Source of the DNA: an uncultured Gammaproteobacteria bacterium
Lineage (GTDB): Bacteria > Patescibacteriota > Patescibacteriia > UBA11705 > JABHMO01
Assembly: GCA_964590105.1 (NCBI GenBank)
Contig: CAZPYM010000003.1
Span: 8,179 to 72,178, forward strand
DNA length: 64,000 nucleotides
Reading direction: 5' to 3'
In this document: in pieces, positions 5,944 to 51,129 of the stretch
How the letters are laid out: each line of letters opens with the position of its first letter
How positions within the stretch are numbered: position 1 is the first letter of the stretch
Made by a program: the position numbers and the translations under genes
The notes under the pieces: generated by a model
What the model saw: the letters and a program-made list of their open reading frames with translations, nothing else
The model's database searches: none
Told to the model about the DNA's origin: nothing

Positions 5944-5952
5944 ATTTCATTA

Positions 5953-5981: not shown

Positions 5982-5988
5982 GATAGCG

Positions 5989-6196: not shown

Positions 6197-6214
6197 TTGT
6201 ATAAGACAAGATAA

Positions 6215-6275: not shown

Positions 6276-6384
6276 ATAATGCCTCACGGTTTATAAATGG
6301 AAGCTAAAATCGATAAGATAGAGTTTAGTAGTTTTCGGTCTCCATGTCACTATTTATTAGGCAGTTAAATTTTTATAATTTTAT

Positions 6385-6885
6385 ATGATAGATATTAAGC
6401 CAATTAAACAATCTGTGGGAATGTGTGGCCCTATTTCCTTTAAGATGGTTATGGATTTTTACGGATTTGACAGGCCCGTAGAGTATTGGAAAGAGGTAAC
6501 TGGAAAAGAGTTTATCAATGGTGATACTGGAGCCGTTGAATTTGGATACTGGGATGAAATGTTTGTAGACAACGTCAAGAAATTAGGTTATCAAGGTTTT
6601 TGTAAGGACAATTCTAGCATTGACGAGATTAAAGATTATATTAGTAGAGAGATTCCGGTAATTGTTAATTGGTTTTCTCCTGAACAAGGCTCTCATTTCT
6701 CGGTGGTGTCGGGTGTTGAGGGAGATAAAATTTATTTTGCTGATCCATGCTTTGGTGAAATCAAGGAATATAACGTAAATTGGTTTTTGGAAAGATGGTC
6801 GGACCATGGATTGGTGCCAATGGATTATCCAGATAATGATCCAGGCTGGGTGCATAGAATATGCGTAGTTTATCCTAATAAGTAA
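6385..6885 (+). CDS. peptidase C39-like (papain-fold cysteine peptidase) domain protein
   Basis: 'SVGMCGPISFKMVMDFYG' matches the C39 catalytic-Cys region (nDCGpaaL..l.yyG), and the downstream 'GSHFSVVSGVEGDKIYFADP' matches the His region. 166 aa, standalone, with no ABC transporter fused. Confidence 0.55.
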   Translation: MIDIKPIKQSVGMCGPISFKMVMDFYGFDRPVEYWKEVTGKEFINGDTGAVEFGYWDEMFVDNVKKLGYQGFCKDNSSIDEIKDYISREIPVIVNWFSPEQGSHFSVVSGVEGDKIYFADPCFGEIKEYNVNWFLERWSDHGLVPMDYPDNDPGWVHRICVVYPNK

Positions 6886-6971
6886 AAGTATGGCCATAAC
6901 TCTTTGCAAAAAAACATTGAAGCAATTAGAGAAGTCAATACTCAGGGCTGGTTAGGGCGCAGTTTTTTTAT

Positions 6972-7048
6972 GGTTGCTTAGCTCAGTTGGTTAGAGCGCT
7001 GCACTCACATTGCAGAGGTCCTGGGTTCAAATCCCAGAGCAACCACCA
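6972..7048 (+). tRNA. tRNA-Val (anticodon CAC)
   Basis: Acceptor ggttgct/agcaacc, D-arm gctcagttggttagagc, anticodon stem-loop ctgca-ctCACat-tgcag, T-arm ctggg-ttcaaat-cccag, CCA encoded. Confidence 0.9.
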
Positions 7049-7136
7049 AACTTTTAATCATTTAAACAAAAAACATTTATTTACTACTGGTTTTACTTAT
7101 TTTTTTTATAATTCATTATTAATTTATATTTATTTT

Positions 7137-10100
7137 ATGAAGGAAAAATCGCTGTTTGCGCAAAATGAAGAAAAAATAATTAATTATTGGGAAGAGAAAA
7201 ATATTTTCCAAAAAACTTTGGACAAAAAATCAGCCAAAGGCAATTTTATTTTTTTTGAAGGCCCGCCGACCGCCAATGGGAAACCTGGTATTCATCATAT
7301 TCTAGCGCGCGCTTTCAAAGATGTTATTCCGCGGTTCAAAACAATGCAAGGCTATCATGTTGAAAGAAAAGCCGGCTGGGATACGCACGGCCTGCCGGTT
7401 GAGCTTCAGGTTGAAAAAGAACTGAAAATTTCTGGTAAACCGGACATTGAAAAATATGGGATTGAAGAATTTAATACTAAATGCAAGGAAAGCGTTTGGA
7501 AATATAAAAAAGAATGGGAAGAAATGACTCGACGGATTGCTTTTTGGTTGGACATGGAAGATCCATATGTCACTTATTCCAATGATTATATTGAAACGCT
7601 GTGGTGGATTTTGAGTGAAGCAAATAAAAAGGGTTTGGTTTATAAAGGTTACAAAGTTGTTCCTCAATGTCCGCGTTGCGGCACGGCTCTTTCTTCGCAC
7701 GAAGTGGCACAAGGTTACAAAAACGTGGAGGAAAATTCAGTTTATCTTAAATTCAAAGTTAAAGGCGAACAAAATACTTATATTCTTTCGTGGACAACAA
7801 CGCCGTGGACATTGCCCGGAAATGTGGCGCTCGCAGTTGGAGAAAAAATTGATTATGTGAAAGTTGATTATCAGGGAGACAAATTAATTTTAGCCAAGGC
7901 TTTGATTAATGATGTTTTTGACGGGCCAGTAAAAGTTGTTGAAGAAATAAAAGGAGCAGATTTGGTTGGCTTGGAATATGAACCATTGTTCCCGGGCGCA
8001 TTAGATCCCGGCGACAAAAAAGCCTGGTACGTTGGCAAGGCGGATTTTGTTTCAATTACAGACGGCACGGGCGTGGTGCATACGGCGGTAATGTATGGTG
8101 AAGATGATTTTCAATTTGGTTTGGAAAATGATTTGCCGTTTGTTCATACTGTGGAAGAAGACGGGACGTTCAAGCCGAGTGTTGCAAAGTGGGCGGGAAA
8201 GTTTGTCAAAGATCCGGAAGTTGAAAAACAAATTGTTAATGATTTAAAAGAACGCGGTTTATTATTCAAGGAAAAAATATACGCGCATGATTATCCTTTT
8301 TGCTGGCGTTGCGACAGTCCGCTCCTTTATTACGCGAAAGATTCTTGGTTTATAAAAATGACAGCCTTGAAAAATGAGATGATTGATAATAATGAGCAAA
8401 CCAACTGGGTGCCTGAACATATTAAGCACGGTCGTTTTGGTGAATGGTTGGAAAATATCAAAGACTGGGCAATTTCGCGGCAGCGATATTGGGGTACGCC
8501 GATCCCGATCTGGGAATGCGAAGATTGCAAAGCGTTTGAAGTGATTGGTAGTTTTGAAGATTTGGGCCAAAAAGCGTGTAAAAAAATTACCAGCCTGCTT
8601 TTTGTGAGACATGCGGAGAGCGAGAAAAACGTTCTGGGTTTTAAATCCTGTAGCTTAGACAAGCATCCGCTCACGAAAAAGGGAATTAAACAGGCGGAGC
8701 AAATGTCCGGACAATTGAACAAAGTTGATTTAATTATTTCGTCGCCGGTTTTGCGGGCGAGGCAAACGGCGGAAATAATAAGTAAAAAACTAAAAGTGGA
8801 GGTTGTTTTTGACGAATTGATTTCTGAGCATAATGTCGGGAAGTGGAATGATATTTTGAAAGAGGATTTGGAGAAAGATAATAAAGAGTATGGCGAATAC
8901 AGCCAGTTGCAGGGAGAACGAAAATATGATTTCAAGTCCGGCATTGATGGAGAATCTCGCCGGGAAGTTGTGGCGCGGGCAGAAAAATTTATAAAGAACG
9001 TAGTATCAAAGTACGCTGGTAAAACGGTCCTGATTGTTGGGCACGGTTGTACCTACGGAGCCTTTTCCAAAGTAATAAATAATTGCAGTTATGAGGAGTT
9101 TTTCCAAAAAGAAAACATTAAATTCCAAAACGTAAAAAGTTTTCAATTGGATGAGGATGGAAAATTGTTTGATCCGCACAAGCCGTTCATTGATTCATAT
9201 GAGTACGGTTGCAAATGCGGTGGCCGGATGAAGCGCGTGCCGGATGTTTTTGATTGTTGGTTTGATTCCGGCGCCATGCCTTTTGCTCAGTATCATTATC
9301 CGTTTGAAAATAAAAAATTAATTGACGCGGGCGAGCAGTATCCAGCGGAATATATTTCCGAAGCAATTGATCAGACGCGGGGCTGGTTTTACACTTTGCT
9401 CGCGATTTCCACTTTGCTTGGCAAGGGCGCCTGTTATAAAAATGTGATTTGCCTGGGGCATATTCGCGATAAGGAAGGAAAGAAAATGAGTAAATCAAAA
9501 GGCAATGTTATTGATCCCATGACAATCATTGACCAGTATGGAGTTGATGCTTTGCGCATGCATTTGTATACGATCAATCAGCCGGGCGATCCAAAGAATT
9601 TTGATGAGAACTCGGTTAAAGATGTTTTGCGGAAAACTGTAATGCTTCTTGGAAACGTGGTTAACTTCTATATGATGTATGGGGAAGGTAAAAGTCCAAA
9701 GATAAAAGGTAAAAGTAATAATGTGCTGGATGTATGGATCGGAGCAAAATTAAATTTGTTGATTCAAGATGTGACAAAAGATTTGGAAGATTATCATATT
9801 TTCGAGGCGGCCAGAAATATTATTGAATTTATTGATGAGCTTTCGACCTGGTACGTGCGGCGTTCGCGCGAGCGATTTAAAGCTGAGGGCGAAGATAAGG
9901 AAAATGCGGTGGCAACTTTGAATTTAGTTTTGGGTGAACTGGTGAAATTAATCGCGCCGTTTATGCCATTTGCCGCGGAAAGTTTTTATCAGAAACTTGG
10001 CAATGAAAAAGAATCAGTCCATTTGGAAGACTGGCCGGTGTTTGATGAAAAATTAATTGATGAAACTGTTTTGAAAGACATGGAATTAGCTCGGCAAGTT

Positions 10101-10583
10101 GTTGAACTTGGATTGTCTGCGCGTGATGAAAAACAAATTAAGGTTCGACAGCCATTGCAAACACTTGAATACGATGGAAAGAAATTTGACAAGGATTTAG
10201 AACAAATAATTGCGGAAGAGCTGAATGTTAAAAACGTTGAAAATGTAAAAGTTGTACAAGGTGATAATTTGGTTATCAAAGAAGCGGGGGGCGTTGTAGT
10301 TGGATTAAACATTGAATTAACTGAAGAACTTAAACTTGAAGGACTGGTTCGTGAATTAACTCGTCAGATAAACAATCTTCGCAAAAATCAGGGATTAACC
10401 AGGGATGATCAGGTTAAATTGATTTATAGCACAGAGGGCGAGCAGTTGAAAAAACTTTTTGCCAATGCCGAATCAGTTGAAAGGTTGAAGCAGGCGACTT
10501 TGTTGTCCGGAGTTGAAGAGGGTAAGGGAGCGAATAAGGTTAAAGTGAATGATGAAGAGGTTGAAGTAGAACTATTGAAATAA
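7137..10583 (+). CDS. ileS: isoleucine--tRNA ligase (type 2 / eukaryote-like IleRS) with an inserted histidine-phosphatase (PGAM-like) domain
   Basis: The track ORF (6987..) begins inside the tRNA-Val; the ATG at 7137 (MKEKSLFAQNEEKIINYWEE) is the plausible start. Class I motifs are present: 'PTANGKPGIHH' (HIGH), 'WDTHGLP', 'WISRQRYWGTPIPIW', 'DCWFDSGAMPFAQ', 'GIDQTRGWFYT', 'KMSKSKGN'. Between 'IGSFEDL' and 'DPHKPFID...CKCGGRMKRVP' lies a roughly 190-aa insert containing 'LLFVRHAESEKN...PLTKKGIKQAEQ...SSPVLRARQTAEII...LIVGHGCTYGAF'. Confidence 0.9.
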   Translation: MKEKSLFAQNEEKIINYWEEKNIFQKTLDKKSAKGNFIFFEGPPTANGKPGIHHILARAFKDVIPRFKTMQGYHVERKAGWDTHGLPVELQVEKELKISGKPDIEKYGIEEFNTKCKESVWKYKKEWEEMTRRIAFWLDMEDPYVTYSNDYIETLWWILSEANKKGLVYKGYKVVPQCPRCGTALSSHEVAQGYKNVEENSVYLKFKVKGEQNTYILSWTTTPWTLPGNVALAVGEKIDYVKVDYQGDKLILAKALINDVFDGPVKVVEEIKGADLVGLEYEPLFPGALDPGDKKAWYVGKADFVSITDGTGVVHTAVMYGEDDFQFGLENDLPFVHTVEEDGTFKPSVAKWAGKFVKDPEVEKQIVNDLKERGLLFKEKIYAHDYPFCWRCDSPLLYYAKDSWFIKMTALKNEMIDNNEQTNWVPEHIKHGRFGEWLENIKDWAISRQRYWGTPIPIWECEDCKAFEVIGSFEDLGQKACKKITSLLFVRHAESEKNVLGFKSCSLDKHPLTKKGIKQAEQMSGQLNKVDLIISSPVLRARQTAEIISKKLKVEVVFDELISEHNVGKWNDILKEDLEKDNKEYGEYSQLQGERKYDFKSGIDGESRREVVARAEKFIKNVVSKYAGKTVLIVGHGCTYGAFSKVINNCSYEEFFQKENIKFQNVKSFQLDEDGKLFDPHKPFIDSYEYGCKCGGRMKRVPDVFDCWFDSGAMPFAQYHYPFENKKLIDAGEQYPAEYISEAIDQTRGWFYTLLAISTLLGKGACYKNVICLGHIRDKEGKKMSKSKGNVIDPMTIIDQYGVDALRMHLYTINQPGDPKNFDENSVKDVLRKTVMLLGNVVNFYMMYGEGKSPKIKGKSNNVLDVWIGAKLNLLIQDVTKDLEDYHIFEAARNIIEFIDELSTWYVRRSRERFKAEGEDKENAVATLNLVLGELVKLIAPFMPFAAESFYQKLGNEKESVHLEDWPVFDEKLIDETVLKDMELARQVVELGLSARDEKQIKVRQPLQTLEYDGKKFDKDLEQIIAEELNVKNVENVKVVQGDNLVIKEAGGVVVGLNIELTEELKLEGLVRELTRQINNLRKNQGLTRDDQVKLIYSTEGEQLKKLFANAESVERLKQATLLSGVEEGKGANKVKVNDEEVEVELLK

Positions 10584-12168: not shown

Positions 12169-12197
12169 TTGACAAAATTATAGTTATGTGCTATACT
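12169..12197 (+). promoter_or_regulatory. consensus promoter TTGACA-N17-TATACT
   Basis: ttgacaaaattatagttatgtgctatact, immediately upstream of a roughly 600-nt GC-rich non-coding stretch. Confidence 0.55.
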
Positions 12198-12203
12198 GTG
12201 GGC

Positions 12204-12808
12204 GCGATTGTAGCTGATGAGAGCTGGCTACGCAACGTCTTTGTGAAGGGCTTCGGCACCCTAAATATGGGGTGCGGGAGCATGGTCAAAAACCTGCGGC
12301 GAAAAAGGAGGAAAGAATGTGTCGATAGAGGAAGCGTCTCGGAATTGTAAGCCGCCGAGGCGTGGATACAGGGGATGAAAATTCCTGAGGGTTTACCGGC
12401 GCAAGTGCATAAGCGCGCAATATGTGCGTGGGATGTGGCCTGTTGGATCAGTGAAAGCAAGTAAGCGGCCAGCAAAAAACTGAATGCCGTTTGAAAGCAA
12501 GTAATTGGGTTAATGGGCTCCCTGGTGACAGGGAATGACTGCATCCATGTCGGAGTCTCTTTCCCGTGGCTCGCGGCGGCTGTAATAGTCCACCGTAAAT
12601 CGCACTGGGAAATGTCAGGTTCCGGCGCGTCGTTAGGTTCGCCACCAAAGCACTCGAGGCGCAAGTTTGTCAGCGGCGCTGTGCCGGTTAAACAGCGAAA
12701 CTGAATAGGTTTTTCCTGGACGCCGAGAATGAGATCAGGACTCCGGACGCGGAGGCAAATAATACGTTTCTGGGACGAGTCGCAACATGCGGCTCGTCCC
12801 AATTTTTT
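12204..12808 (+). ncRNA. rnpB: candidate RNase P RNA (bacterial type A-like), possibly with leader/insertions
   Basis: A GC-rich block of ~600 nt (~55% GC) with no convincing ORF, framed by the promoter and a strong terminator (GGGACGAG-tcgcaacatgcgg-CTCGTCCC-aaTTTTTTT, 12772-12809). Several segments resemble conserved E. coli M1 RNA regions:
- AGGAGGAAAG, near CR-I GGAAAG
- GGAUCAGUGAAAGCAAGUAAGCGG, compared with GGAUCAGGUAAGGGUGAAAGGGUGCGGUAAGAGCG
- GGCUGUAAUAGUCCACCGUAAAUCGCAC, compared with GGCUGGUAACAGUCCGUGGCACGGUAAACUCCAC
- ACAGCGAAACUGAAUAGG, compared with GCAAGGCCAAAUAGGGG
- CAGGACUCCGGAC, compared with ACAGAACCCGGCU
The P4 pairing could not be verified by hand. Confidence 0.5.
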
Positions 12809-17642: not shown

Positions 17643-19139
17643 TTATGCAATGCCCTCTACGTATTCGGGCTTGCATTCGTCAATTGCAATCGGTCGCAGA
17701 ATGGCCTGCGCCTGTTCTGCCACTATTTGCGGTGTCAGTGTTGTGCCGCCTTTGATATAGATGACAAACTTCGTCGGCTGAAATAGGAAAATGTCCGCTG
17801 TCGGATCCATTTCACTCAGCCGTTGATACAGATCATCCATGCCGTTCAAGCGGTTGTCCTGTACCCTTGTTACTCCGAGATTAAACGTGTTGTTTTTCAT
17901 GTCACGATAGGTCGCGACAACCACATCAATCTCATCTCGGTAGTACCGACGAAGTTGATACCGGATTACCTTGCTCGTAAGCGTTGTTTCCGGCAATAGC
18001 GCAAAGGTCAGGCCGCCTGCCCTGGTAATCTGCGCCGTTTCGAGCAGTTTTTGTACTTTTCCTCGAATTGCCTTTTTGTGATGCCAGGCCTTCAGCATGA
18101 AAAGCCCGATCATGGTGCGAACCAGTTCCTGGTAGCTGTCGTCCGGCAGTAACCGGAGGATTTCCCAGGGCCCCTTTCGGAGAACCACGGGGACCACCTT
18201 GTTGTCTCGGCCGGCATTGAAATCAGCCAGCTGGTCAGTCAGCATCTGTCGAAAGCTACCGGTTTCAGTTGTTTCGCCAAAGGGCGAACCCTCGGCCTGC
18301 ATCTGATTCACGAAAGCCACAAGTTCTTTCAGGACTGGGTCGTCTTGAAGTTTTTCGTTTCGTTCGAAAACTACCTGTGTGGCGCTCGGAAGCACTGAAG
18401 CGTCAAAGCGTTCACACTGCTTTTGTACTGCTTCTCTCTCATTTGGCTTATTGGGCCAATCGCCCCAGGTGAGCAAAGTGAGATAAGTTGCAGTGAGTTT
18501 GTCGAACGAATCAATCTGATCCTCGGAAAACGGAGGCAGCTCGGTGGTCCGGCGTTGATTCTTGTGCCAGGCCTCGAGCATGATCAGCCCGACTGCCAGC
18601 TTTTCCTCGTCGCGAACCTCATTGGTCTCCACTTCAAGGTTGGCCACAAGATCAATCAATTCCCATGGACCTTTTTGCTCGGTAATCAAAATCACCGGCT
18701 CCTCGCGGCCCTGGTTGTATTCTTTCAACTGTTCATTGAAAGCTGACCGTAGTTTACGCGCGTCAGCGTCCTCGGTGTTAACTGAGCTACCGCTGTCCAC
18801 CCGATCTGTCAGAGACACTATGTCCCCGACAAATGGATCGTGGCTCAGCTCAGGAAATCTTTCAACAACGGTTCCCGCCGCGCTTGGCCAGCGTCGACGA
18901 TTTTGATGATGATCAAATTCAAATGTCCCAAACCGTCCGCCGGTATCTAGATGGACAACCCTTGTGTTTCGGTTCAAATCTCTCTCATAAAAACGCTTCC
19001 CCGGAGGTACGAAAACGTACTCCAGTCGGTAGTCGCTAATATGAAAACTATTTGCCAAAAGCCACAAGTAAGTTGTCGCAATGGAATCAAAATCCGGCGA
19101 CTGGTGATTCACCAGTATATACCGAGTTTCGGGATTCAT
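17643..19139 (-). CDS. DHH-family phosphoesterase-like N-terminal domain protein with an internally duplicated C-terminal domain; GC-rich
   Basis: 'LVNHQSPDFDSIATTY' (DHH motif I/II-like) and 'FEFDHHQN' (DHH motif III) are present. Two paralogous internal segments ('...KGPWELIDL...LEAWHKNQRR' and '...KGPWEILRL...LKAWHHKKAIR') are seen. GC is visibly about 50%. Confidence 0.5.
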   Translation of the reverse strand: MNPETRYILVNHQSPDFDSIATTYLWLLANSFHISDYRLEYVFVPPGKRFYERDLNRNTRVVHLDTGGRFGTFEFDHHQNRRRWPSAAGTVVERFPELSHDPFVGDIVSLTDRVDSGSSVNTEDADARKLRSAFNEQLKEYNQGREEPVILITEQKGPWELIDLVANLEVETNEVRDEEKLAVGLIMLEAWHKNQRRTTELPPFSEDQIDSFDKLTATYLTLLTWGDWPNKPNEREAVQKQCERFDASVLPSATQVVFERNEKLQDDPVLKELVAFVNQMQAEGSPFGETTETGSFRQMLTDQLADFNAGRDNKVVPVVLRKGPWEILRLLPDDSYQELVRTMIGLFMLKAWHHKKAIRGKVQKLLETAQITRAGGLTFALLPETTLTSKVIRYQLRRYYRDEIDVVVATYRDMKNNTFNLGVTRVQDNRLNGMDDLYQRLSEMDPTADIFLFQPTKFVIYIKGGTTLTPQIVAEQAQAILRPIAIDECKPEYVEGIA

Positions 19140-22121: not shown

Positions 22122-22796
22122 ATGAAGAAGTTTGCTCAGTATCTGTGTCTGGCGGGGATTCTTTTTGGATTTCTCTTCGTCGGTTCCTGCGCGTCGCAGG
22201 AAGACGAAGAAGATGCAACCGTTGTTCAGGAGGAGCTCAGTGTTCAGCTCACGATGGATAACGAACAGAACGTCGTCGCGGAGTTCAGCAACGGGCAGGC
22301 GGCTTACGGATGGGTCGAGTACGAGGAGATGGTGCAAAGCCTCTATGCAGAGGGCCAGTTTCTCACGAACGTGGCGATCCAGTATGAATCAAGCCCCGAA
22401 CAGACGTCTGTGGGCGACGGATTTGAAACGCAGCTGAATCCGCTTACCGTCAAGGTGCCGTTCACGTCATACTACATCACCATCACGAGCCCGCATAAGA
22501 ATTATGTTGGCGGGTGCATCGGTAAGACGGTAACGCATGTGAATTTCATCATCAACCAAAAAGGAGGAACGTTGTATTTGGATCTGCATCTCGCTGTTTG
22601 GATGAGCAATGGCAAGCCCTGCGTTGGTGTTTACATCACGCCTTCCAAGTGGTGCTCGAAAATCTGCGGGCCATCGATGGATCAGATCAGAAAGGCAATA
22701 AAATCAGCGTTGGTTGCCGCAGGTATCTCTGCCGCGGCGGCGGCTGTCATTGCCGAGGTCTTGGCACCCATCGGAGTGGCGGCGCTGGCGCTGTAA
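22122..22796 (+). CDS. putative lipoprotein, GC-rich
   Basis: Signal peptide with lipobox 'FLFVGSC', an Ala/Gly-rich hydrophobic C-terminus, and visibly high GC (about 55-60%). Confidence 0.5.
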   Translation: MKKFAQYLCLAGILFGFLFVGSCASQEDEEDATVVQEELSVQLTMDNEQNVVAEFSNGQAAYGWVEYEEMVQSLYAEGQFLTNVAIQYESSPEQTSVGDGFETQLNPLTVKVPFTSYYITITSPHKNYVGGCIGKTVTHVNFIINQKGGTLYLDLHLAVWMSNGKPCVGVYITPSKWCSKICGPSMDQIRKAIKSALVAAGISAAAAAVIAEVLAPIGVAALAL

Positions 22797-30746: not shown

Positions 30747-31376
30747 TTACACCCTTTCATTCCATGCCAGATCTTCCAGCCTGTCGTGGATTATCCGGAA
30801 TAGAGGCATAGTCAAAAACACATTATCCTCCGTGTGTTCGAGATGGAATTTTTCGATTCCTTCGAAAAAGCGAATCGAGCGTGTCCGCTCGAAAGTGCCT
30901 CTGACGGTCTGCGTGAGGGCTGCGAGGCACTGGTTTAGCGCATCTGTCCACGCCTTTGATACAACATCAGCATGGGCGCTGACAAACGATTGGAGCACTT
31001 GAAGTGCCCGTCCGCGGCTGTAATCGCCGCGGACGGGCATGGGCTCATGGCCGAACTCATGCAACTTGTCGCCGAGCTTGAACAGCTCGTTGGCAAGCAT
31101 GGCTTTGAGTTCGGCCTGTTCGGGAAGGGCGGCCTCGGGCCCGGCGAAGAATTTCTTCAGCTTCTCGTTAAAATGAATGTTCAAGTCGGGGATTTTTTCG
31201 TCCCGGAACTTCACTACGAGGCAAGGCTCCGACAAGATAGCCTCAATATAGGAGGTGAGATCCTGGCGAAATTGTTCGGGCAGATCTTTTCTGTCTTGAA
31301 TTACCGTGCAAAGAAGCAGTGCAGTGTCTTCGCAGTTTACCTCGCCATGAAAATTCGCAACTAAAGTGTATAACAT
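30747..31376 (-). CDS. hypothetical protein (contains HEFGH); GC-rich
   Basis: The start is taken at the ATG (MLYTLVANFHGE) preceded by AAAGGAGG, rather than the track's 31457. It contains 'LHEFGHEP' (an HExxH-like motif). GC is visibly above 50%. Confidence 0.45.
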   Translation of the reverse strand: MLYTLVANFHGEVNCEDTALLLCTVIQDRKDLPEQFRQDLTSYIEAILSEPCLVVKFRDEKIPDLNIHFNEKLKKFFAGPEAALPEQAELKAMLANELFKLGDKLHEFGHEPMPVRGDYSRGRALQVLQSFVSAHADVVSKAWTDALNQCLAALTQTVRGTFERTRSIRFFEGIEKFHLEHTEDNVFLTMPLFRIIHDRLEDLAWNERV

Positions 31377-31396
31377 TTGCGGTCCTCCTTTGATTT

Positions 31397-31738
31397 TTAT
31401 TTCCACGGTGACGAATATAAATTGTCCAGCGCCTGGGCGAAAAACTGCAAGTCCCACATGATGGTTTTGTAAATCGGCAGGTCCGGTAGTTGTTGATCTC
31501 CGAAGGCGAGTTTTTGCCGGAATTTGTGGAAAGTCCAGTCATGAATGTGCTCGGCGTATCTCATTTTGACAGCCAGTCCGGCTACATCGCAAGTCAGTGT
31601 CTGGTATAGAAACTCGTCGATCAGAAGCCGCTTCCATTTGGGAATGAGGTCTGACTGAGCAATAAAACCGGCGAGAACGTCCCATTTTTGTCTGGCAAAT
31701 TCGTCTAAAATGAAAGGCTTTTCGTAATTATGTGACAT
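31397..31738 (-). CDS. hypothetical protein; GC-rich, co-transcribed with 30747..31376
   Basis: 113-aa ORF with a 20-nt gap to the downstream gene that contains its SD. No motif recognised. Confidence 0.45.
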   Translation of the reverse strand: MSHNYEKPFILDEFARQKWDVLAGFIAQSDLIPKWKRLLIDEFLYQTLTCDVAGLAVKMRYAEHIHDWTFHKFRQKLAFGDQQLPDLPIYKTIMWDLQFFAQALDNLYSSPWK

Positions 31739-31894: not shown

Positions 31895-32665
31895 ATGAAT
31901 AAAAACATCAAACCATTGCTAGCAGAGCTGGGATTTATGGAAAAAGAAGCGGCTATTTACATCGCGCTACTTGAAAATGGAAGCTCTAAAGCTTCTGACT
32001 TGGCTAAAATCACCGACCTAAATCGCGTGAGCGTTTATGATCAATTGGAAGCTTTGATCAAGCGTGGGGTGGTGAGCAAGTTCAAAAAGGAATCAGCAAC
32101 TTTTTACAGCGCCCATGATCCGGGCCAGCTTTTGAATTATTTGGATCGGGAAAAGGATGAGCAAGTCAAACGAATTGAAAAACAAAAAAGCCGTGTGGAA
32201 AGCGTCCTGCCAGACTTGAAGGGGATGATGAATTTCGCGCGCAAAACGCGGCCGCAGGTTAGATTCTTTGAGGGTGAGAAAGGCATGCGCGAAGCATATG
32301 AAGATACGCTCACCTCGTCCGAGCCGATTATGGCTTTTGCCAATATCAAAACCATGCGCGAAGGTTTGCCTGGATTTTTTCCGGATTATTTCAAGCGCCG
32401 CGCGGCGAAAAAACTTTATATTCGTGGTATTGTGCCGAAAAATGAAGAATGGATTGAGCAAGCCAAACACAACAAGGAAGAAATGCGCGATATTCGTTAT
32501 TTACCCGAGGGAAAAACTTTTTCGCCGGAAGTTAATTTTTACGATAATAAAATGTTGATTGCTTCATGGAAAGAAAAAATGGCGATTATCATTGAATCGA
32601 AAGAACTGGTTGAGCTGATGAAGCTGAATTATGAACTTTTGTGGCAGAGTTTGTCAAAGGAATAA
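31895..32665 (+). CDS. TrmB-family transcriptional regulator
   Basis: N-terminal wHTH 'LGFMEKEAAIYIALLENGSSKASDLAKITDLNRVSVYDQLEALIKRGVV'. It is a paralog of the 51130..51906 ORF. Confidence 0.6.
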   Translation: MNKNIKPLLAELGFMEKEAAIYIALLENGSSKASDLAKITDLNRVSVYDQLEALIKRGVVSKFKKESATFYSAHDPGQLLNYLDREKDEQVKRIEKQKSRVESVLPDLKGMMNFARKTRPQVRFFEGEKGMREAYEDTLTSSEPIMAFANIKTMREGLPGFFPDYFKRRAAKKLYIRGIVPKNEEWIEQAKHNKEEMRDIRYLPEGKTFSPEVNFYDNKMLIASWKEKMAIIIESKELVELMKLNYELLWQSLSKE

Positions 32666-32698: not shown

Positions 32699-34003
32699 AT
32701 GAAACTCACCAAATCCCAAAATTTTTTTTGCGCCTGTTTAATCGTTATTCTGCTGGAAATATGCTGGGCGATTTTTTATTCGCCGACATTCAACGAGAAG
32801 CACATTTCTTTTTATAATGACACACAGCAAACTTTTCAGGCGGTTGTTTCCGAAGAGCCGGATGTGCGGCTGGATCATCAGAAGTTAACAGTCGAGCCGA
32901 CAGAATTGAAAGGAAAAGTTCTTTTGCGGACTCAGCTGTATCCGGAATATGAATATGGGGACTTATTGGAAGTAAATTGTAAACTGCAAACTCCGGAACC
33001 AATTGAAAATTTTAAATACGATAAATATTTGGCGCGAAGCGGGATCTATTCGGTTTGTTATTCGCCTCAAATAAAAGTAATTGAAAAAAATAAAGCCGGT
33101 CGTTTCGTTGCCGGAATCCTGCGATTCAAGAAAAACATTGAAAAGAAAATTAACCGTACTGTTGCCGAGCCGGAAGCCGCGCTGGTCGGCGGCATTTTGC
33201 TCGGCACGCGCCAGGGAATTCCGCAGAATTTGCTAAGCAAATTCAACACAACGGGAATCACTCATATTATCGCTATTTCCGGTTATAACATTACTATCAT
33301 TGTGGTGGTGCTGTTGAATTTTTTCATTTCCTTGCGAATTAATCGCAAGAAAGCGACCTGGGGAATCCTCGCGGCTTTATTTTTCTTTGTAATTTTAACC
33401 GGTGCCAGCGCCTCAGTTGTCCGTGCGGCAATAATGGGGAGTCTGGTTTTGCTGGCCGGGTATTTGGGACGCAAGGGCAATATTCGAAACGCTTTAATTC
33501 TTTCCGCGGCAATCATGGCCTTGTTTAATCCTAAAATTTTAATCTGGGACGCGGGCTTTCAGCTTTCGTTTTTGTCAACAATCGGCCTGGTGTATTTATC
33601 GCCAAAGCTTTTGAAGTATTTTAAATGGGCGCCGGAAAAATTTGGCTTGCGAGAAAATTTAACTTCAACTTTATCCGCTATTATTTTTACTCTGCCTTTA
33701 ATCCTGTTCCAGTTCGGCCGGTTGTCAATTGTAGCGCCGATTGTTAATTTGCTTGTTTTGCCAATAATCCCCATCGCCATGCTGGCCGGCTTTGTTCAGT
33801 TCATCTGCGCTTCAATTCATTTATTCCTTGGCCAGATCGTCGGTTGGTTTAGCTGGCTTTTGCTTGGGTTTGTTGTAAAGGTGGTTGAAATTTTTTCATC
33901 ATTTTCATGGGCGTCGATTGAAATAAAAATAAGCTGGTGGGTGATGGTTGCTTTGTATTTACTTTTATTTGCAGTTATAATAAGAAGAGACTTAAATAAA
34001 TGA
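32699..34003 (+). CDS. comEC: ComEC/Rec2 family competence membrane protein (DUF4131 + competence domain, no MBL domain)
   Basis: 'GITHIIAISGYNITIIV' and 'SASVVRAAIMGSLVLLAGYLGR' are typical of the ComEC competence domain, with multiple TM helices. Confidence 0.7.
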   Translation: MKLTKSQNFFCACLIVILLEICWAIFYSPTFNEKHISFYNDTQQTFQAVVSEEPDVRLDHQKLTVEPTELKGKVLLRTQLYPEYEYGDLLEVNCKLQTPEPIENFKYDKYLARSGIYSVCYSPQIKVIEKNKAGRFVAGILRFKKNIEKKINRTVAEPEAALVGGILLGTRQGIPQNLLSKFNTTGITHIIAISGYNITIIVVVLLNFFISLRINRKKATWGILAALFFFVILTGASASVVRAAIMGSLVLLAGYLGRKGNIRNALILSAAIMALFNPKILIWDAGFQLSFLSTIGLVYLSPKLLKYFKWAPEKFGLRENLTSTLSAIIFTLPLILFQFGRLSIVAPIVNLLVLPIIPIAMLAGFVQFICASIHLFLGQIVGWFSWLLLGFVVKVVEIFSSFSWASIEIKISWWVMVALYLLLFAVIIRRDLNK

Positions 34004-41925: not shown

Positions 41926-41954
41926 TTGACAGTCAAAGCCAGATATCATACGAT
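41926..41954 (+). promoter_or_regulatory. promoter TTGACA-N17-TACGAT
   Basis: ttgacagtcaaagccagatatcatacgat, upstream of the GC-rich MBL gene. Confidence 0.5.
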
Positions 41955-42027
41955 TAAATTGAGAGATGCTGGTCTCTCGCGCCCAATGCTCCTGTCCTTC
42001 GCCTGTAAGCCGCGAAAGGAGGGCAAG

Positions 42028-43017
42028 ATGAGGGTAACAACCTACGGTACCAGGGGATCAATCCCCATTGCGAACGCAAAAAGTGTCAGGTACGGCGGTA
42101 ACACCACCTGCTTGCGGGTGGAATCATGTTGTTTGCCGGATGGCCAGTGGTTGATCATTGATGCCGGTTCCGGCTATGTTCCGGCGTCGACAGATGCTTT
42201 GAAAAGTGGAGTGAAGCAGGTCAACCTGTTCTTCACCCACCATCACCACGATCACAATCAGGGACTGCCCCTGTCTCCTTTGACCTTTATCAAAGCCATT
42301 CCGGTCCATGTGTACGGGCCGGTGGATAATGGTTGGGGGCCGAAGGAAGTGATCGAATCTGTCATGCAAAAACCGGTTTTTCCGGTACCTTTCAAGATCG
42401 TGGCTTCGCACTTTCACTTCCACCGGTTGGAGTATCCGACAACCCTGGTGATCTTGATCCACCCGCGCGGCGGCTTCAAGACACTCGGCGTGGATGTGTT
42501 TGAGCGGCTCCTTGCCAAAGGAGAGCCCATTCCTTTCAGACAAAAGATGTCGTTCCCCGTGGCGGAATGTCTGGTGGTCTGGATGCATCGCACTGATCAT
42601 CCGGAAGCCACCATTTCGTACCGCTTTGAGGAGCGTCCGACAGGCAAAGTGTTTTGCCTGCTGACAGATCATGAAAACCAGGACGGAGTGCCGCAGAGCC
42701 TGCTCGCTCACCTGGCGAATGCGGATTTCCTGATTCAAGACGCCCAGTATGATCCGGACACGTACGCGAAAAGGACGGCCGGCTTTGGCCACGCCACTCC
42801 CACGTACGCAGTTCGCCTGGCTAATCAGGCTGGGGTTAAGAAGCTGGGATTCACCCACCACGATCCGGGCGCTGACGACGAGGCAGTGGACAGGATCGTG
42901 GAGATCGGACGAACTCTGGCCAAAGAGGCACGGGAAGACGACGGCAAAAAGAAGAGCAATCTTCTTCAGCCGGCTGACATCTTTGCCTGCGCCGATTATC
43001 AGGTTTACGAAGTCTAA
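42028..43017 (+). CDS. MBL-fold metallo-hydrolase (RNase Z/PhnP-like); GC-rich gene
   Basis: The start is taken at the ATG (MRVTTYGTRGS) preceded by AAAGGAGGG. 'THHHHDHNQGLP' is the HxHxDH motif. GC is visibly about 58%. The antisense ORF 42124..42861 is considered spurious. Confidence 0.6.
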   Translation: MRVTTYGTRGSIPIANAKSVRYGGNTTCLRVESCCLPDGQWLIIDAGSGYVPASTDALKSGVKQVNLFFTHHHHDHNQGLPLSPLTFIKAIPVHVYGPVDNGWGPKEVIESVMQKPVFPVPFKIVASHFHFHRLEYPTTLVILIHPRGGFKTLGVDVFERLLAKGEPIPFRQKMSFPVAECLVVWMHRTDHPEATISYRFEERPTGKVFCLLTDHENQDGVPQSLLAHLANADFLIQDAQYDPDTYAKRTAGFGHATPTYAVRLANQAGVKKLGFTHHDPGADDEAVDRIVEIGRTLAKEAREDDGKKKSNLLQPADIFACADYQVYEV

Positions 43018-45599: not shown

Positions 45600-45920
45600 T
45601 TAAGAATATTGTTCCAGGTATTTCCTGGGATTTACGCGGCCATTCGGCCGCGACGTTCGCTGAGTGATGTTTCCGGCCAGCTCACCGGTCTGGCAGTTGC
45701 CGGCTTCGTCGAGCTGACGCAGGATCCGGATGACTTCATCGTTGTTCATGCACGGTTCTTGGTTAAACCCCCGGCTTTCATCCGGCGACTTTGGCGGCAG
45801 TTTACCGCGTTCCGAGGAATCATCCTGCTTGTCCGCTGATGTCTGCTTGGCAGAGAGTTCGCCGGCAAACGTACCGAGAAAAAAACAACAGAGCAGTGCC
45901 GTCCACAGGATTTTGGTCAT
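45600..45920 (-). CDS. small secreted protein (signal peptide); GC-rich
   Basis: 'MTKILWTALLCCFFLGTFAGELSA' signal peptide; GC about 57%; no motif. Confidence 0.45.
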   Translation of the reverse strand: MTKILWTALLCCFFLGTFAGELSAKQTSADKQDDSSERGKLPPKSPDESRGFNQEPCMNNDEVIRILRQLDEAGNCQTGELAGNITQRTSRPNGRVNPRKYLEQYS

Positions 45921-46090: not shown

Positions 46091-46166
46091 CGGGCTGTAG
46101 CGCAGTTGGTAGCGCGCGTCGTTCGGGACGACGAGGCCGGCGGTTCAAGTCCGCTCAGCCCGACCA
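46091..46166 (+). tRNA. tRNA-Pro (anticodon CGG)
   Basis: Acceptor cgggctg/cagcccg, anticodon stem-loop cgtcg-ttCGGga-cgacg, T-arm gcggttcaagtccgc, CCA encoded. Confidence 0.9.
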
Positions 46167-46184
46167 ATTTTTTAGAATTATTAT

Positions 46185-47204
46185 ATGAAAAAAAATAAAA
46201 AACAAAATATAAACAATCATTCATTACCAATTGTTGATTTCCCGGTTAACTCTGCCGCCAGGATCATGACAAAAGCCGTGCCCGTTGTCTCGCCGCAGGC
46301 GACAATTGCGGACATTGAAAAGCTTTTGCTGGATAAACCCAATGAATTTGAATCGATCAATTATGTTTATGTAGTTAATTCTGACGGTATTTTGAAAGGC
46401 GCCATTTCTGTAAAGGAAATTTTTCGTCAGTCAAAATCAGCCAAGGTGGCGGACATAATGGTGAAGGATTTGATTGTGGCAAAACAAAGCTCAAGCCAAT
46501 TAAAGGCAGCTTATTTGGCGCTTCAACACAATATTAAGGCCGTGCCTGTAGTTGATAAAGGTGGGAAATTTGTGGGAGTGGTTATGAGTGAGGATATAAT
46601 GGATATTATTTATGCGGAAACCAATCGTCACGTGTTTGCTTTTTCTGGTCAGCAAAGGCCTGAAATGTTTATTGATAATGTTTTTTCAATGTCAATTTGG
46701 AAATCTTTAAAACACCGTTTGCCGTGGCTTTTGATTGGGCTTCTTGGGGGACTACTAGCGGCGAAAATTATTGGCGGATTTGAATCAACGCTCGGACAAA
46801 ACCTTATTTTGGCGGCGTTCATTCCTTTGATTGTTTACATGGCTGACGCAGTCGGCACGCAGGTTGAGGCGTTTTTCATTCGCGATTCGGCGATTCATTT
46901 GGATTTAAATTTTCTTGCTTATTTCTTACGCCAGATGTTGATTGTATTTTTGATTGCCGTGGTTTCAGGCGTGGTTTTGATGAGCATTAGTTCAGTTTTA
47001 TATAATGACTTTACCATTGGCATAGTTTTGGCAATTTCCTTGTTTTGCGCTATTATGTCAGCGGTTTTGTCCGGCTTGATCGTACCGTATTTTTTGAGCA
47101 AAATGCGTCTAGATCCGGCCAATGCCAGCGGGCCGATTGCCACGATTATTCAGGATATTTTGAGCGTAACAATTTATTTTAGCGTAGCCGCCTGGTTATT
47201 GTGA
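46185..47204 (+). CDS. mgtE: magnesium transporter MgtE
   Basis: Tandem CBS domains followed by 5 TM helices with 'AAFIPLIVYMADAVGTQ' and 'PANASGPIATIIQDI' (MgtE TM motifs). Confidence 0.8.
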   Translation: MKKNKKQNINNHSLPIVDFPVNSAARIMTKAVPVVSPQATIADIEKLLLDKPNEFESINYVYVVNSDGILKGAISVKEIFRQSKSAKVADIMVKDLIVAKQSSSQLKAAYLALQHNIKAVPVVDKGGKFVGVVMSEDIMDIIYAETNRHVFAFSGQQRPEMFIDNVFSMSIWKSLKHRLPWLLIGLLGGLLAAKIIGGFESTLGQNLILAAFIPLIVYMADAVGTQVEAFFIRDSAIHLDLNFLAYFLRQMLIVFLIAVVSGVVLMSISSVLYNDFTIGIVLAISLFCAIMSAVLSGLIVPYFLSKMRLDPANASGPIATIIQDILSVTIYFSVAAWLL

Positions 47205-47236
47205 TTTGAAGAGATTTTTTTGAATGAAAAAGTTCT

Positions 47237-47312
47237 GGGCCCGTAGCTCATCTGGTAGAGCGCGGCATTCGCATTGCCGAGGTAAGGGGTTCGAGTCCCC
47301 TCGGGTCCACCA
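47237..47312 (+). tRNA. tRNA-Ala (anticodon CGC)
   Basis: Acceptor gggcccg/cgggtcc with G3:U70, anticodon stem-loop cggca-ttCGCat-tgccg, T-arm aggggttcgagtcccct, CCA encoded. Confidence 0.9.
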
Positions 47313-47443
47313 GACTCTTTCCGCCTACTGCGAAAAGAGAAATTACAAATTACAAGCTACAAATTACAAAAAATAAAAAACAAATTACCCCAAGAGGATC
47401 CCTTTGGGACAAAAAAATAAATAGTAAATAAGATATAAATCAT

Positions 47444-47532
47444 GTCGCGGTGGTGAAATTGGTATACACGTATGCTTCAGGAGCATATGGGGGCAACCCC
47501 GTGGAGGTTCAAGTCCTCTCCGCGGCACCATG
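47444..47532 (+). tRNA. tRNA-Leu (anticodon CAG), type II with long variable arm
   Basis: Acceptor gtcgcgg/ccgcggc, anticodon stem-loop tatgc-ttCAGga-gcata, variable arm tgggggcaaccccg, T-arm ggaggttcaagtcctct, CCA encoded. Confidence 0.85.
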
Positions 47533-47617
47533 AACCATTCCCCCGCCAGGGCGGGGTCAGGTTTATGGTAAACCATGTTTTTAGAGGTTTATAATAAACA
47601 ATTTAAGAGGGTTTATT

Positions 47618-48208
47618 ATGAAAACAGAATTTGAAGCGACTTTCATTGATATTGATGTCAATGAGGTACGGAAAAAATTAAAAGCGCTTGGCGCGAAATT
47701 AATCAGACCGGAGGCATTGATGCGCCGGGTTAATTTTTATCCGCCAATTGACGATAATACCGGCTGGATGCGGGTACGCGATGAGGGAAACCGGATTACA
47801 TTAAGTTACAAAAGATTTTTGGGTTATAAAAAGGGCAATGATGAAATGAAAAATCAGCAGGAAATTTTTTTGGAAATAAATGATTTTGGTCAGGGCGTTC
47901 AATTGCTTGAAGTTTGCGGCGCCAGAAAAAAGTCGTATCAGGAAACAAAAAGAGAAGATTGGGAATACCAAGGTTTGGAAGTCTCTATTGATACCTGGCC
48001 CGGGCTGGAGCCTTTTGTGGAAATTGAAGGCAGGGACGAGCAAACTGTGAAACAAGCGGCGGAAGAATTGGGTTTTGATTATTCAAAAGCGATTTTTGGT
48101 CCGGTTGGATTGATTTATGAAAAAAAACTGGGCATTCCTCCTCAAGTTATTAATAATGAAACACCGGAAATTACTTTTGAAAATCCACCTGAAAAATATA
48201 ACAGCTGA
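47618..48208 (+). CDS. CYTH domain protein (class IV adenylyl cyclase / triphosphatase-like)
   Basis: N-terminal 'MKTEFEATFIDID' (EXEXK-type start), 'RVR', and 'FVEIEGRDE' are typical of CYTH/CyaB. Confidence 0.6.
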   Translation: MKTEFEATFIDIDVNEVRKKLKALGAKLIRPEALMRRVNFYPPIDDNTGWMRVRDEGNRITLSYKRFLGYKKGNDEMKNQQEIFLEINDFGQGVQLLEVCGARKKSYQETKREDWEYQGLEVSIDTWPGLEPFVEIEGRDEQTVKQAAEELGFDYSKAIFGPVGLIYEKKLGIPPQVINNETPEITFENPPEKYNS

Positions 48209-48310
48209 TGTTTCTTTGCGATTTGTTTTAAGTCTATGTATTGAGTTTTTATTTTTTTTAATTTAAATTTGTTTTGGACTTTGAGTTTTTGACTTTGTGT
48301 TTTGAAATGT

Positions 48311-48388
48311 CGGGGCGTGGCTCAGCTGGTCTAGAGTGCCGGGCTGGGGGTCCGGAGATCGTGAGTTCAAATCTCACCGCCCCGACCA
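48311..48388 (+). tRNA. tRNA-Pro (anticodon GGG)
   Basis: Acceptor cggggcg/cgccccg, anticodon stem-loop ccggg-ctGGGgg-tccgg, T-arm gtgagttcaaatctcac, CCA encoded. Confidence 0.85.
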
Positions 48389-49779: not shown

Positions 49780-49884
49780 GGTTTTATTTTAGAAGTTTGC
49801 AATAGTAGTTCACTGTCTGTGTAATATTTGTCAATTTTTTTGAATAATGAAAAAACAGGCTATCGTTGATAGCCTGTTTTGTGT

Positions 49885-50148
49885 TTAGCGTTCCTTTTTT
49901 CGAAATGACATTGCAATCAGTGCGGTTACTCCGAGGAGGGTAAATGTTGCCGGCGCGTAGATGCCTTTGCTCAGGAGGCCGAGCGAGCTGATGGGAATCG
50001 CAATTGTAATAAACGTTCCGACAATGATGGCCCCTCCTTCGAGAAGCTTGTGGCTTTCTGAGTCAACCAAGTAGCTCGCGCCATAGAGGAAGCCAACCGA
50101 CGCTATCCAAATTAGAGCCGCAATAAGTTCAATCATTTTTTTCTCCAT
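49885..50148 (-). CDS. small membrane protein; GC-rich
   Basis: 87 aa with two hydrophobic helices; GC about 52%. Confidence 0.4.
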   Translation of the reverse strand: MEKKMIELIAALIWIASVGFLYGASYLVDSESHKLLEGGAIIVGTFITIAIPISSLGLLSKGIYAPATFTLLGVTALIAMSFRKKER

Positions 50149-50243
50149 TGTTTATAAATGTTCAAGTCTCCAACTTCTAATTCCTTACAAGAGAAATAAG
50201 CAGTTGAAGAGGGGAATCGCGTTGCGATTCCCCTCGGTTGGGG

Positions 50244-50840
50244 TTAGAAGCTGAACTTGACGCCGAAGAGGGAATTTTTCGGATCAAACTTAGCCTTTTC
50301 GCTGGCAAGTGGCGCCCAGCTGGCCCAGAGTGTGGCCTTGCCGACCGTAACTTCAGCCAGCGGACCTACTCCGGATGGACGTCGATCTTTGAGACCTATC
50401 GTCAGATAGGGAAGAACTTTGTACTTTAACGCTAGGTCGTACCAGAGAGCAGAGTCGTCACCGCTGTAGGCAACTTTTCCCGCTTCTACGATTCCGAGGA
50501 AGCTGACCTTGTCGTGGCCCAGCCAAAGCGAGTAGGCTGTTCGCAGGTCGAAACCTTCAACGCCCTGTTCCATGCCGACACTCAGTCCGAGCGTCATCCA
50601 GTCGGTGGGCGACCATTCCGGCCCGGCATAGGCTTCTGCCCAGCCGGCGGTAGTCAGGAAAAAGCTGCTGACTGACCAGTGCGAATCGAGCTTGTGCGTG
50701 AGGTAGCTGTCTACCGTTAGGCTTTTGAAAGCCTTGGGCGTCGCAGACTGCAACTCTCCGAAGCCTCTCGTCTGGGCGGTAGCGGTAAGGGATGCGCAAA
50801 GGTAAACAAGTACAGTCAGCGGCTGGAGGAACTTTCTCAT
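50244..50840 (-). CDS. outer-membrane beta-barrel-like protein (signal peptide, C-terminal ...GVKFSF); GC-rich
   Basis: The start is taken at the ATG (MRKFLQPLTVLVYLCASLTATAQT) preceded by AAGGGAG. The protein shows alternating hydrophobic beta-strand-like segments and ends in an aromatic residue (F), as OMPs do. GC is about 57%. A TTGACA-N17-TACAAT promoter lies on the minus strand at 50937-50965. Confidence 0.45.
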   Translation of the reverse strand: MRKFLQPLTVLVYLCASLTATAQTRGFGELQSATPKAFKSLTVDSYLTHKLDSHWSVSSFFLTTAGWAEAYAGPEWSPTDWMTLGLSVGMEQGVEGFDLRTAYSLWLGHDKVSFLGIVEAGKVAYSGDDSALWYDLALKYKVLPYLTIGLKDRRPSGVGPLAEVTVGKATLWASWAPLASEKAKFDPKNSLFGVKFSF

Positions 50841-51020
50841 AATTTTCTCCCTTTGCCCCTTGGGGCTTTGCAAAAGTTATTTAATGAACCGCACTTAAGA
50901 TGGATTGTCTCCTTGACTTTCTCATCTTGACATTGCATTGTATCACGAAATGGGCATTTTGTCAATGTCGGCTCAACAAATATTATTTCTCATTGTCTAA
51001 ATATAAATAAAAAAATGCTG

Positions 51021-51049
51021 TTGACGTGACTTCAACAACATGCTATAAT
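51021..51049 (+). promoter_or_regulatory. promoter TTGACG-N17-TATAAT with 5'-UTR octamer repeats
   Basis: ttgacgtgacttcaacaacatgctataat. The -10 context 'catgctataatgg' is identical to that of the other TrmB-like gene's promoter (31813-31826). It is followed by taatctct/taatcact x7 (51071-51118). Confidence 0.55.
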
Positions 51050-51129
51050 GGATGTAGGAGGTTGCGTTATTACTAATCTTTAATCTCTAATCTCTAATCA
51101 CTAATCACTAATCACTAATCACTAGAACA

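Follow-up and report, generated by a model that had tools for sequence, protein, structure and literature searches.

A GC-rich gene in a Patescibacteria contig and its probable membership of an undescribed family of small outer-membrane-type β-barrels

Why does a stretch of Patescibacteria DNA whose gene content looks monoderm encode a protein that resembles an outer-membrane β-barrel? The question is raised by the gene at 50244..50840 on the minus strand of a 64-kb stretch of contig CAZPYM010000003.1; the whole stretch is called the window below, and coordinates are positions within it. Patescibacteria, or the Candidate Phyla Radiation (CPR), account for much of bacterial diversity and serve as the monoderm reference in debates on the evolution of the outer membrane. 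The observations described here suggest that the gene is probably genuine, kept by selection and part of an undescribed family of small β-barrels with 12 strands, of the outer-membrane protein (OMP) type. The family is new and uncurated, its fold class is known, and the clade in which it occurs is unexpected.

The barrel fold is apparent from the predicted structure. The AlphaFold2 model obtained with a 66-sequence alignment consists of a signal helix followed by 12 strands (predicted local distance difference test, pLDDT, 95.1; predicted template modelling score, pTM, 0.83); with only five homologues, the model was all-β and mediocre (pLDDT 59). When the model was compared with the PDB by Foldseek, all of the top 50 matches were outer-membrane barrels, 48 of them at E <= 1e-3. 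The best matches are 12-stranded and include NanC (2wjq, E 6.5e-7), VhGalP (8xua, template modelling (TM) score 0.58), the intimin β-domain (4e1s, TM 0.60), KdgM (4pr7), PcoB (7pge) and a designed 12-strand barrel (9fdg).

The family alignment points in the same direction. Independently of the model, the family-averaged hydropathy alternates between hydrophobic and polar faces with a two-residue periodicity in all 12 strands. On the variable hydrophobic face L, V, I and F replace each other, and the conserved charged face is formed by E29, E69, E91, R100, E119, R153/R154 and E181 (R100 and E119 are each conserved at 98%, R154 at 95%, E181 at 87%, and E69 and E91 at about 71-72%). W67, Y71, W133, Y134 and W172 are conserved along the strands. 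The variable hydrophobic face can be read as the lipid-facing outside and the charged face as the lumen, the strands being presumably oriented in this way. Such a pattern would be expected of a barrel that faces lipid on its outside and has a functional lumen, the opposite of what a soluble barrel would present. The predicted structure supports an OMP-type β-barrel, which the original prediction had proposed from the repeated amphipathic strand-like segments, a cleavable signal peptide and an aromatic C-terminal residue; each of these features is present.

The two ends of the precursor are conserved. The N-terminus runs from MRK through a hydrophobic core to the site A-T-A↓Q, in which A20, A22 and Q23 are kept in 69%, 90% and 50% of the family, and residues 2-16 form an isolated helix in the AlphaFold2 model. 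These features directly support a predicted Sec-exported precursor that would be cut by signal peptidase I after the A-x-A motif. The idea of a lipoprotein was rejected, as there is no lipobox and C15 is not conserved. A longer open reading frame (ORF) with a TTG start at 50873 is unsupported, because the family alignment begins at M1 in 90% of members. The C-terminus reads ...GVKFSF. Among 146 members of full length, 80 end in F and 113 in F, L or I, and G occupies position -6 in 95; the consensus is G(-6), hydrophobic(-5), K/R(-4), hydrophobic or aromatic(-3), polar(-2), F/L/I(-1). The alignment directly supports the view that this G-x-x-F-x-F terminus is a putative β-signal.

The gene has expression signals of its own (Table 1). 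The minus-strand promoter named in the original prediction was found as described and is kept in a related locus, L007. The hairpin beyond the stop codon, which lies in a 77-nt stretch with a minimum free energy (MFE) of -31.3 kcal/mol and z -5.8, is either a terminator or an mRNA-stabilising hairpin. With its own strong promoter and terminator hairpin, the barrel gene therefore looks monocistronic.

Among known proteins, the best structural matches are the sugar-acid-specific KdgM/NanC porins (NanC 2wjq, KdgM 4pr7 and 4fqe, VhGalP 8xua; E 6.5e-7 to 2e-5, TM 0.49-0.60). Like the barrel, these are of about 175-210 residues, with 12 antiparallel strands, short loops and a monomeric-type architecture. 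The enterobacterial KdgM/NanC porins are controlled by dedicated sugar-responsive repressors, and the TrmB-type regulator that appears to control the barrel gene, described below, might be their analogue. The barrel differs in having no sequence relationship to these porins (10-14% identity in structural alignments), in its lumen, where conserved E and R are mixed instead of forming a basic track, and in belonging to CPR. The intimin/invasin β-domain (4e1s, 4e1t), PcoB (7pge), OEP21 (7bgh) and the designed barrel 9fdg have 12 strands and a similar geometry as well (TM 0.44-0.60), but they are domains of larger proteins or have other functions, and the barrel has no passenger domain, no plug and no sequence similarity to them. 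With OMPs that depend on the β-barrel assembly machinery (BAM), the family shares the signal peptide, the even number of strands and the C-terminal motif, and its diderm members lie beside TonB-dependent receptors; the difference is that many of its carriers belong to a phylum reported to have neither an outer membrane nor BAM (PMC6744442, PMC11665869).

Word-indexed protein searches returned 5-12 relatives only, so the family becomes visible only in an exhaustive profile search. Among 1.84 billion cluster representatives, such a search found 541 members at E <= 1e-3 and 249 at E <= 1e-10, nearly all of 180-210 residues, and the closest relative other than the protein itself has just 58% identity. 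The protein matched nothing in Pfam, NCBIfam, PADLOC or PHROGs. A search of 66 diverse members against Pfam at E <= 1 gave no OMP family, and the scattered matches obtained there, as well as those of 43 members against NCBIfam, are of the kind expected by chance. Neither the single protein nor the family profile matched a PDB sequence at E <= 10. These results indicate that the family is uncurated and, at the level of sequence, not a member of KdgM/NanC. No prior description of a β-barrel OMP family in CPR was found in the literature on CPR β-barrels, porins or BamA.

A scan of species genomes with family alignment A1 found nothing, and members in genome records were located by scanning DNA for a hand-made degenerate version of the motif G-[LIV]-K-D-R-R-P-x-G-x-G-P. 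True members are present in Parcubacteria GW2011_GWA2_40_23 (assembly LBYP01) and Candidatus Falkowbacteria RIFOXYC2_FULL_48_21 (assembly MFGM01), and also in two metagenome-assembled genomes labelled Gammaproteobacteria, at loci L033 (CAZPBK010000011.1) and L034 (CAZMEQ010000009.1). In both of the latter a long TrmB-like gene and a barrel gene stand in a setting of 35-38% guanine plus cytosine (GC), and the gene order downstream of the L034 barrel is that of the Parcubacteria record L026 (acyltransferase, ZIP); the label "uncultured Gammaproteobacteria" of these two genomes looks wrong. The distant members P0126 and P0159 (loci L035 and L037) have clearly diderm surroundings, with the gene order TonB-dependent receptor, unknown gene, MFS/HEAT protein, Y_Y_Y sensor kinase, barrel, small protein. 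A further member, P0060, is found on a CPR-like contig of 62% GC, between the genes for ribosomal proteins L1 and L11 and beside a DUF5671 gene. These contexts directly support a family that spans diderms and many lineages of CPR/Patescibacteria.

The window itself has the content of a monoderm-type genome. Its Pfam domains include DUF5671, a FemAB-family enzyme, an LtaS-like sulfatase, ComEC and MacB-type permeases, its type IV pilus genes comprise PilB, PilT, PilC and five pilin-like genes, and two genes for 23S-rRNA-intervening-sequence proteins, described further below, belong to the same picture. No secretin match was obtained within the 64 kb despite these pilus genes, and no family of outer-membrane biogenesis was found among the approximately 56 window ORFs scanned against Pfam. 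This content fits a CPR/Patescibacteria cell with a Gram-positive-type envelope. The earlier reading of the locus as part of a monoderm-type genome, with a pilus cluster devoid of a secretin or PilQ and with no lipopolysaccharide (LPS) or Bam genes in sight, is well supported, and the relatives in Parcubacteria and Falkowbacteria records agree with it. CPR have been described as monoderm, without PilQ, TonB-ExbBD and OMPs (PMC6744442, PMC7137472, PMC11665869, PMC12102498).

In CPR, the conserved partner of the barrel gene is a divergently transcribed gene for a TrmB-family regulator. The winged-helix domain of this protein (PF01978) scores 47.2 bits against a cut-off of 25.6; no sugar-binding effector domain was found in it, and no Pfam domain extends beyond residue 74. 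It resembles TrmB and TrmBL2 of Thermococcales (3qph, 5box) in the winged-helix domain and, with 258 residues, is about as long as TrmBL2. It differs from them in that only the N-terminal part of about 100 residues matches, and weakly (TrmBL2 in the PDB, E 0.014, limited to residues 8-100), in that no sugar-binding domain is recognised, and in that the partner in other lineages is a long form of 516-571 residues in place of the short form of 254-258 residues.

A barrel gene with an adjacent divergent TrmB-type gene occurs in 15 distinct modules. Apart from the window, the divergent regulator is present at L007, L013, L017, L022, L026, L033 and L034, and in 9/10 metagenome loci with at least 400 bp of upstream flank a TrmB-like gene lies 160-410 bp away on the opposite strand. 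It is not present at the Falkowbacteria locus (L028/L045/L046), on the high-GC contig L036, at L018 or in the diderm loci. The regulator of the window is nearest to that of L022 (56% identity), whereas the barrel of the window is not nearest to that of L022 (27%). This incongruence suggests that barrel alleles may have been exchanged at the TrmB-barrel locus.

The region between the two genes contains both promoters (Table 1). GTCAA/TGTTGA motifs are repeated at the barrel promoter and at the regulator promoter, and these are candidate operators. About eight tandem 7-nt units (TAATCTC/TAATCAC) fill positions 51069-51124, between the regulator promoter and the start codon, and a degenerate version of this array is found at the same place in L007. 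The window contains a second TrmB paralogue (31895-32665, plus strand; PF01978, E 9.5e-16), situated directly upstream of ComEC (32699-34003) and divergent from GC-rich ORFs of unknown function (30747-31457 and 31397-31738), so that the pattern of a TrmB gene beside a GC-rich one is seen again.

A possible mode of action of the barrel can be outlined. The TrmB-type regulator would control the barrel gene through the shared intergenic region, and the barrel would act as a small solute channel, under regulation, in a lipid layer outside the cytoplasmic membrane. The high GC content of the gene would be a maintained property of the locus and not the mark of a recent arrival. The barrel would need a bilayer other than the cytoplasmic membrane, because an open barrel in the latter would presumably be harmful. 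The outer membrane of an attached host is a possible, and tentative, destination; an unrecognised outer lipid layer of the CPR cell itself is a somewhat more doubtful one. What is left falls to other destinations or to a gene with no current function. The general proposal that CPR epibionts run a regulated OMP-type porin in a second bilayer, be it the host outer membrane, where it would tap metabolites, or an outer layer of their own overlooked by microscopy and gene censuses, is likewise put forward only tentatively.

Several points weigh against this description. The proposed control by the TrmB-like protein is deduced solely from the conserved adjacency of the two genes. The downstream neighbours of the barrel genes differ (acyltransferase_3, ZIP, CsoR plus HMA-DsbD, unknowns) and give no hint of a substrate; the attempt to derive a function from the downstream context was dropped for this reason. 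Clearly diderm settings are only 2 of about 20 distinct contexts examined, and the neighbour-joining tree of the family is star-like and gives no direction of transfer between CPR and diderms. The ORFs scanned were those of the 64-kb window, and the carrier may have outer-membrane machinery (BamA, Omp85, Lpt) encoded elsewhere. Finally, we know of no precedent for a monomeric OMP that inserts into a foreign outer membrane from the outside, through the LPS leaflet.

The last point bears most directly on the possibility that the barrel is an exported effector, released by the epibiont and inserted into the outer membrane of a diderm host as a regulated metabolite channel. Small barrels of comparable size fold spontaneously into bilayers in vitro, which counts in favour of such a route. 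So do the predicted Sec export from a cell that reportedly lacks an outer membrane and the dedicated TrmB-type regulator under which expression appears to be placed. CPR rely on their hosts for nutrients, by unknown mechanisms (PMC11665869), and a channel of this kind would be in keeping with that dependence. Apart from the missing precedent, it speaks against the effector that the hosts of these Parcubacteria are unknown and that the gene neighbourhood does not indicate any delivery device, and the idea is to be regarded as doubtful. In a more extreme variant of the second-bilayer proposal, the barrel gene would be expressed in a GC-richer partner cell, or its product would be assembled by that cell; if true, this would account for the BAM-type end motif as well as for the codon usage described below.

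It is also rather unlikely that the carriers are not truly monoderm and that the barrel is the porin of their own outer lipid layer, put in place by an unrecognised or highly diverged insertase. The C-terminal motif is kept in the CPR copies, whose last residue is always F, L, I or M, and processing by signal peptidase I and the even strand number fit assembly from the periplasmic side. In L047 (FLOH01001639.1) as many as three barrel-like genes fall within 5 kb; at 2919-9114 of this contig two TrmB-barrel modules stand in tandem and are accompanied by a remote, weakly related, barrel-like secreted ORF (5526-6140; hidden Markov model E 1.6e-6 in a small search). Against this stand the absence of a secretin and of outer-membrane biogenesis families in the window, as given above, and the published cryo-electron microscopy and gene censuses, which report neither an outer membrane nor PilQ, TonB or OMPs for Parcubacteria and Microgenomates (PMC7137472, PMC6744442).

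The composition of the barrel gene sets it apart from its surroundings. The gene has 55.9% GC and a GC fraction at third codon positions (GC3) of 0.64, and it lies in a window of 41.4% GC whose ordinary genes have GC3 values of about 0.34-0.50, near 0.40. A figure of about 55% GC had been given for this gene and for the adjacent 87-aa ORF alike; it is correct for the barrel gene and overstated for the ORF, which has 48.5% GC and GC3 0.55. In 26/26 low-GC CPR-type loci examined, which are distinct record names, some of them with the same barrel sequence, the GC content of the barrel gene exceeds that of its flanks. Barrel GC3 and flank GC are 0.64 and 0.41 in the window, 0.69 and 0.37 in L017, 0.85 and 0.37 in L026, 0.83 and 0.36 in L034, 0.94 and 0.37-0.39 in L043/L048, and 0.89 and 0.35 in L050. 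The contrast is weaker in L022, L018, L033 and L042, and there is none in the diderm loci or on the high-GC contig, where the barrel gene matches its genome. The bias is equal in all codon classes, with C preferred to T and G to A, and G+C at four-fold degenerate sites is 0.59-0.93. Such codon usage looks like that of a genome of 60-70% GC and not like the result of tRNA-driven selection.

This contrast is one argument for the view that the gene was recently imported, a diderm OMP gene having been taken up by a competent CPR cell in which it has little or no function. The uptake machinery, ComEC and type IV pili, is encoded within the window, and diderm members of the family exist. The four-fold sites argue otherwise. 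At conserved residues, their identity between the window and L007 is 0.37 with 0.25 expected, and between L026 and L034 it is 0.44 with 0.35 expected, so that synonymous sites are near saturation between lineages which share the module and in which the amino-acid motifs are invariant; both L026 and L034 nevertheless hold about 81% G+C at these sites, in comparison with 31-47% in adjacent genes. A single recent import does not fit, because the GC excess persists across lineages with near-saturated synonymous sites. Further objections are the 15 distinct modules with the divergent TrmB-like architecture, the conservation of the intergenic region in L007 (Table 1), the absence of mobility genes flanking the barrel gene and of a close donor copy (the nearest relative being the one at 58% identity), and the failure to find copies of the gene among viral contigs, phage records and plasmid records. 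Recent import is thus improbable. The suggestion that the gene is foreign survives as far as the compositional contrast is concerned; a recent arrival is not compatible with a gene that is found GC-rich at the same site, next to the regulator, in such distant lineages.

An old resident at mutational equilibrium does not fit the GC excess either. The gene would rather be a long-standing resident that is kept GC-rich by an unknown process. One candidate is a recombination hotspot with GC-biased gene conversion, which would make sense if the protein is exposed and the cells are naturally competent; the others are that alleles have repeatedly been replaced from GC-rich CPR lineages, that the mRNA is under selection, and that the gene is expressed in a GC-richer cell. 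Two further causes were rejected. An overlapping antisense gene is not supported, since long antisense ORFs occur only where GC3 is extreme and there is none in the window. Translational selection disagrees with the equal bias toward C- and G-ending codons in all classes and with the GC3 of 0.20 in the translation GTPase gene of L033.

That the protein is a secreted soluble β-barrel, serving as a binding protein or as the scaffold of an enzyme, is still less probable than a recent import. Taken alone, without coordinates, the alternating pattern cannot separate the inside of a barrel from its outside. The fold matches, however, are integral outer-membrane barrels throughout, the conservation is reversed, with a variable hydrophobic and an invariant charged face, and 12 strands with short loops would enclose a space wider than a hydrophobic core could fill. 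An assembly or binning artefact, in which a diderm fragment was chimerically joined to a CPR contig, would account for the sharp GC boundaries at the barrel gene, but it is excluded for practical purposes because the identical protein with the same neighbours is present in at least six independent ENA and JGI assemblies, as well as on a 594-kb contig, and this architecture recurs at more than 20 other loci.

The interpretation of the gene as a maintained, regulated barrel touches on several questions. The family provides a concrete protein with which to test whether CPR touch or own a second membrane, and a test case for β-barrel assembly in the absence of a known BAM. It also touches on the open question of how Patescibacteria take up nutrients from their hosts. 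The persistent GC3 excess, which reaches 0.94 in a genome of 37% GC, would mark a gene-specific process so far undescribed for CPR, and a single anomalous gene beside AT-rich neighbours is a clean case in which to study biased gene conversion, allele replacement and selection on mRNA. With 541 representatives and no entry in Pfam or NCBIfam, the family merits a curated model.

Table 1. Features of the barrel locus and GC-rich genes elsewhere in the window
Feature	Position	Strand	Basis or remark
Precursor gene of the predicted 12-stranded OMP-type β-barrel	50244..50840	(-)	ATG start, 198 aa; mature protein ~176 aa
Signal peptide codons, residues 1-22, cleavage A-T-A↓Q	50775..50840	(-)	Sequence reading and family conservation
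Ribosome-binding site GGGAG, 6 nt before ATG	50847..50851	(-)	Sequence reading
Sigma-70-type promoter TTGACA-17-TACAAT, extended -10 TG	50937..50965	(-)	11/12 matches; leader ~90 nt
Perfect 12-bp G+C-rich hairpin, starting 11 nt past the stop codon	50209..50235	(-)	Folding
TrmB-family winged-helix regulator, 258 aa	51130..51906	(+)	PF01978, E 2e-12; divergent partner of the barrel gene
Shared control region	50841..51129		289 bp, 83% identical to that of L007
Regulator promoter TTGACG-17-TATAAT	51021..51049	(+)	Kept in L007
Palindrome ATGCTGTTGACGT/ACTTCAACAACAT over the regulator -35 element	51015-51041		Overlaps the regulator promoter
87-aa ORF (83 aa in public assemblies)	49885..50148	(-)	Three predicted transmembrane helices
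13-bp hairpin flanked by T-runs	49852..49880		Likely bidirectional terminator of the small ORF and the convergent tRNA-binding-domain gene
Other GC-rich genes	5029-5889, 17643-19139, 22122-22796, 30747-31738, 41926-43017, 45600-45920	(+), (-), (+), (-), (+), (-)	Composition

The 87-aa ORF had been taken to form a pair with the barrel gene. This did not hold, as the barrel gene has a terminator hairpin of its own and its conserved partner lies on the other side. No homologue of the ORF was found beside the barrel genes of the other lineages examined, and a role as functional partner was rejected on this ground. The ORF appears to be a lineage-specific neighbour, not a conserved partner.

The barrel gene is one of several isolated GC-rich genes in the window. 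The others (Table 1) have GC fractions of 0.46-0.55 and GC3 values of 0.55-0.67, and they encode, for example, an Na_Ca_ex-like membrane protein, a protein with a lipoprotein-type signal, a 106-aa secreted protein, an MBL-fold protein and a 498-aa protein that has no Pfam match. Similar islands consisting of single GC-rich genes occur in related loci, and they may be a general feature of the carrier genome. Five of the six tRNA genes detected by ARAGORN (46091-48388 and 6972-7048) read G- or C-ending codons: the wobble position is C in the anticodons CGG, CGC, CAG and CAC and G in GGG, a set worth noting in an AT-rich reduced genome that has GC3-rich genes.

Three further features of the window are recorded here. 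The first lies at 12170-12808 on the plus strand, where about 610 nt of 54% GC, without a credible ORF, follow a consensus promoter (TTGACA-17-TATACT) and end in a terminator made of a 14-bp perfect hairpin and a U-run. The segment has an MFE of -232 kcal/mol (z -3.5 in comparison with 20 shuffles); it matched nothing in Rfam at the gathering score or at E <= 1, and ARAGORN found no transfer-messenger RNA in it. It is a candidate for a large unannotated structured RNA. The second is a class I aminoacyl-tRNA synthetase (6987-10583, plus strand) with tRNA-synt_1 and Anticodon_1 domains, in which a His_Phos_1 domain (aa 537-707, E 2.5e-31) is inserted inside the catalytic domain; its true start is probably further downstream, because the listed start of the ORF overlaps tRNA-Val (6972-7048). 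The third is a pair of genes for 23S-rRNA-intervening-sequence proteins (PF05635; 23899-24279 and 63045-63494), which have the lowest GC fraction in the window, 0.32-0.33.

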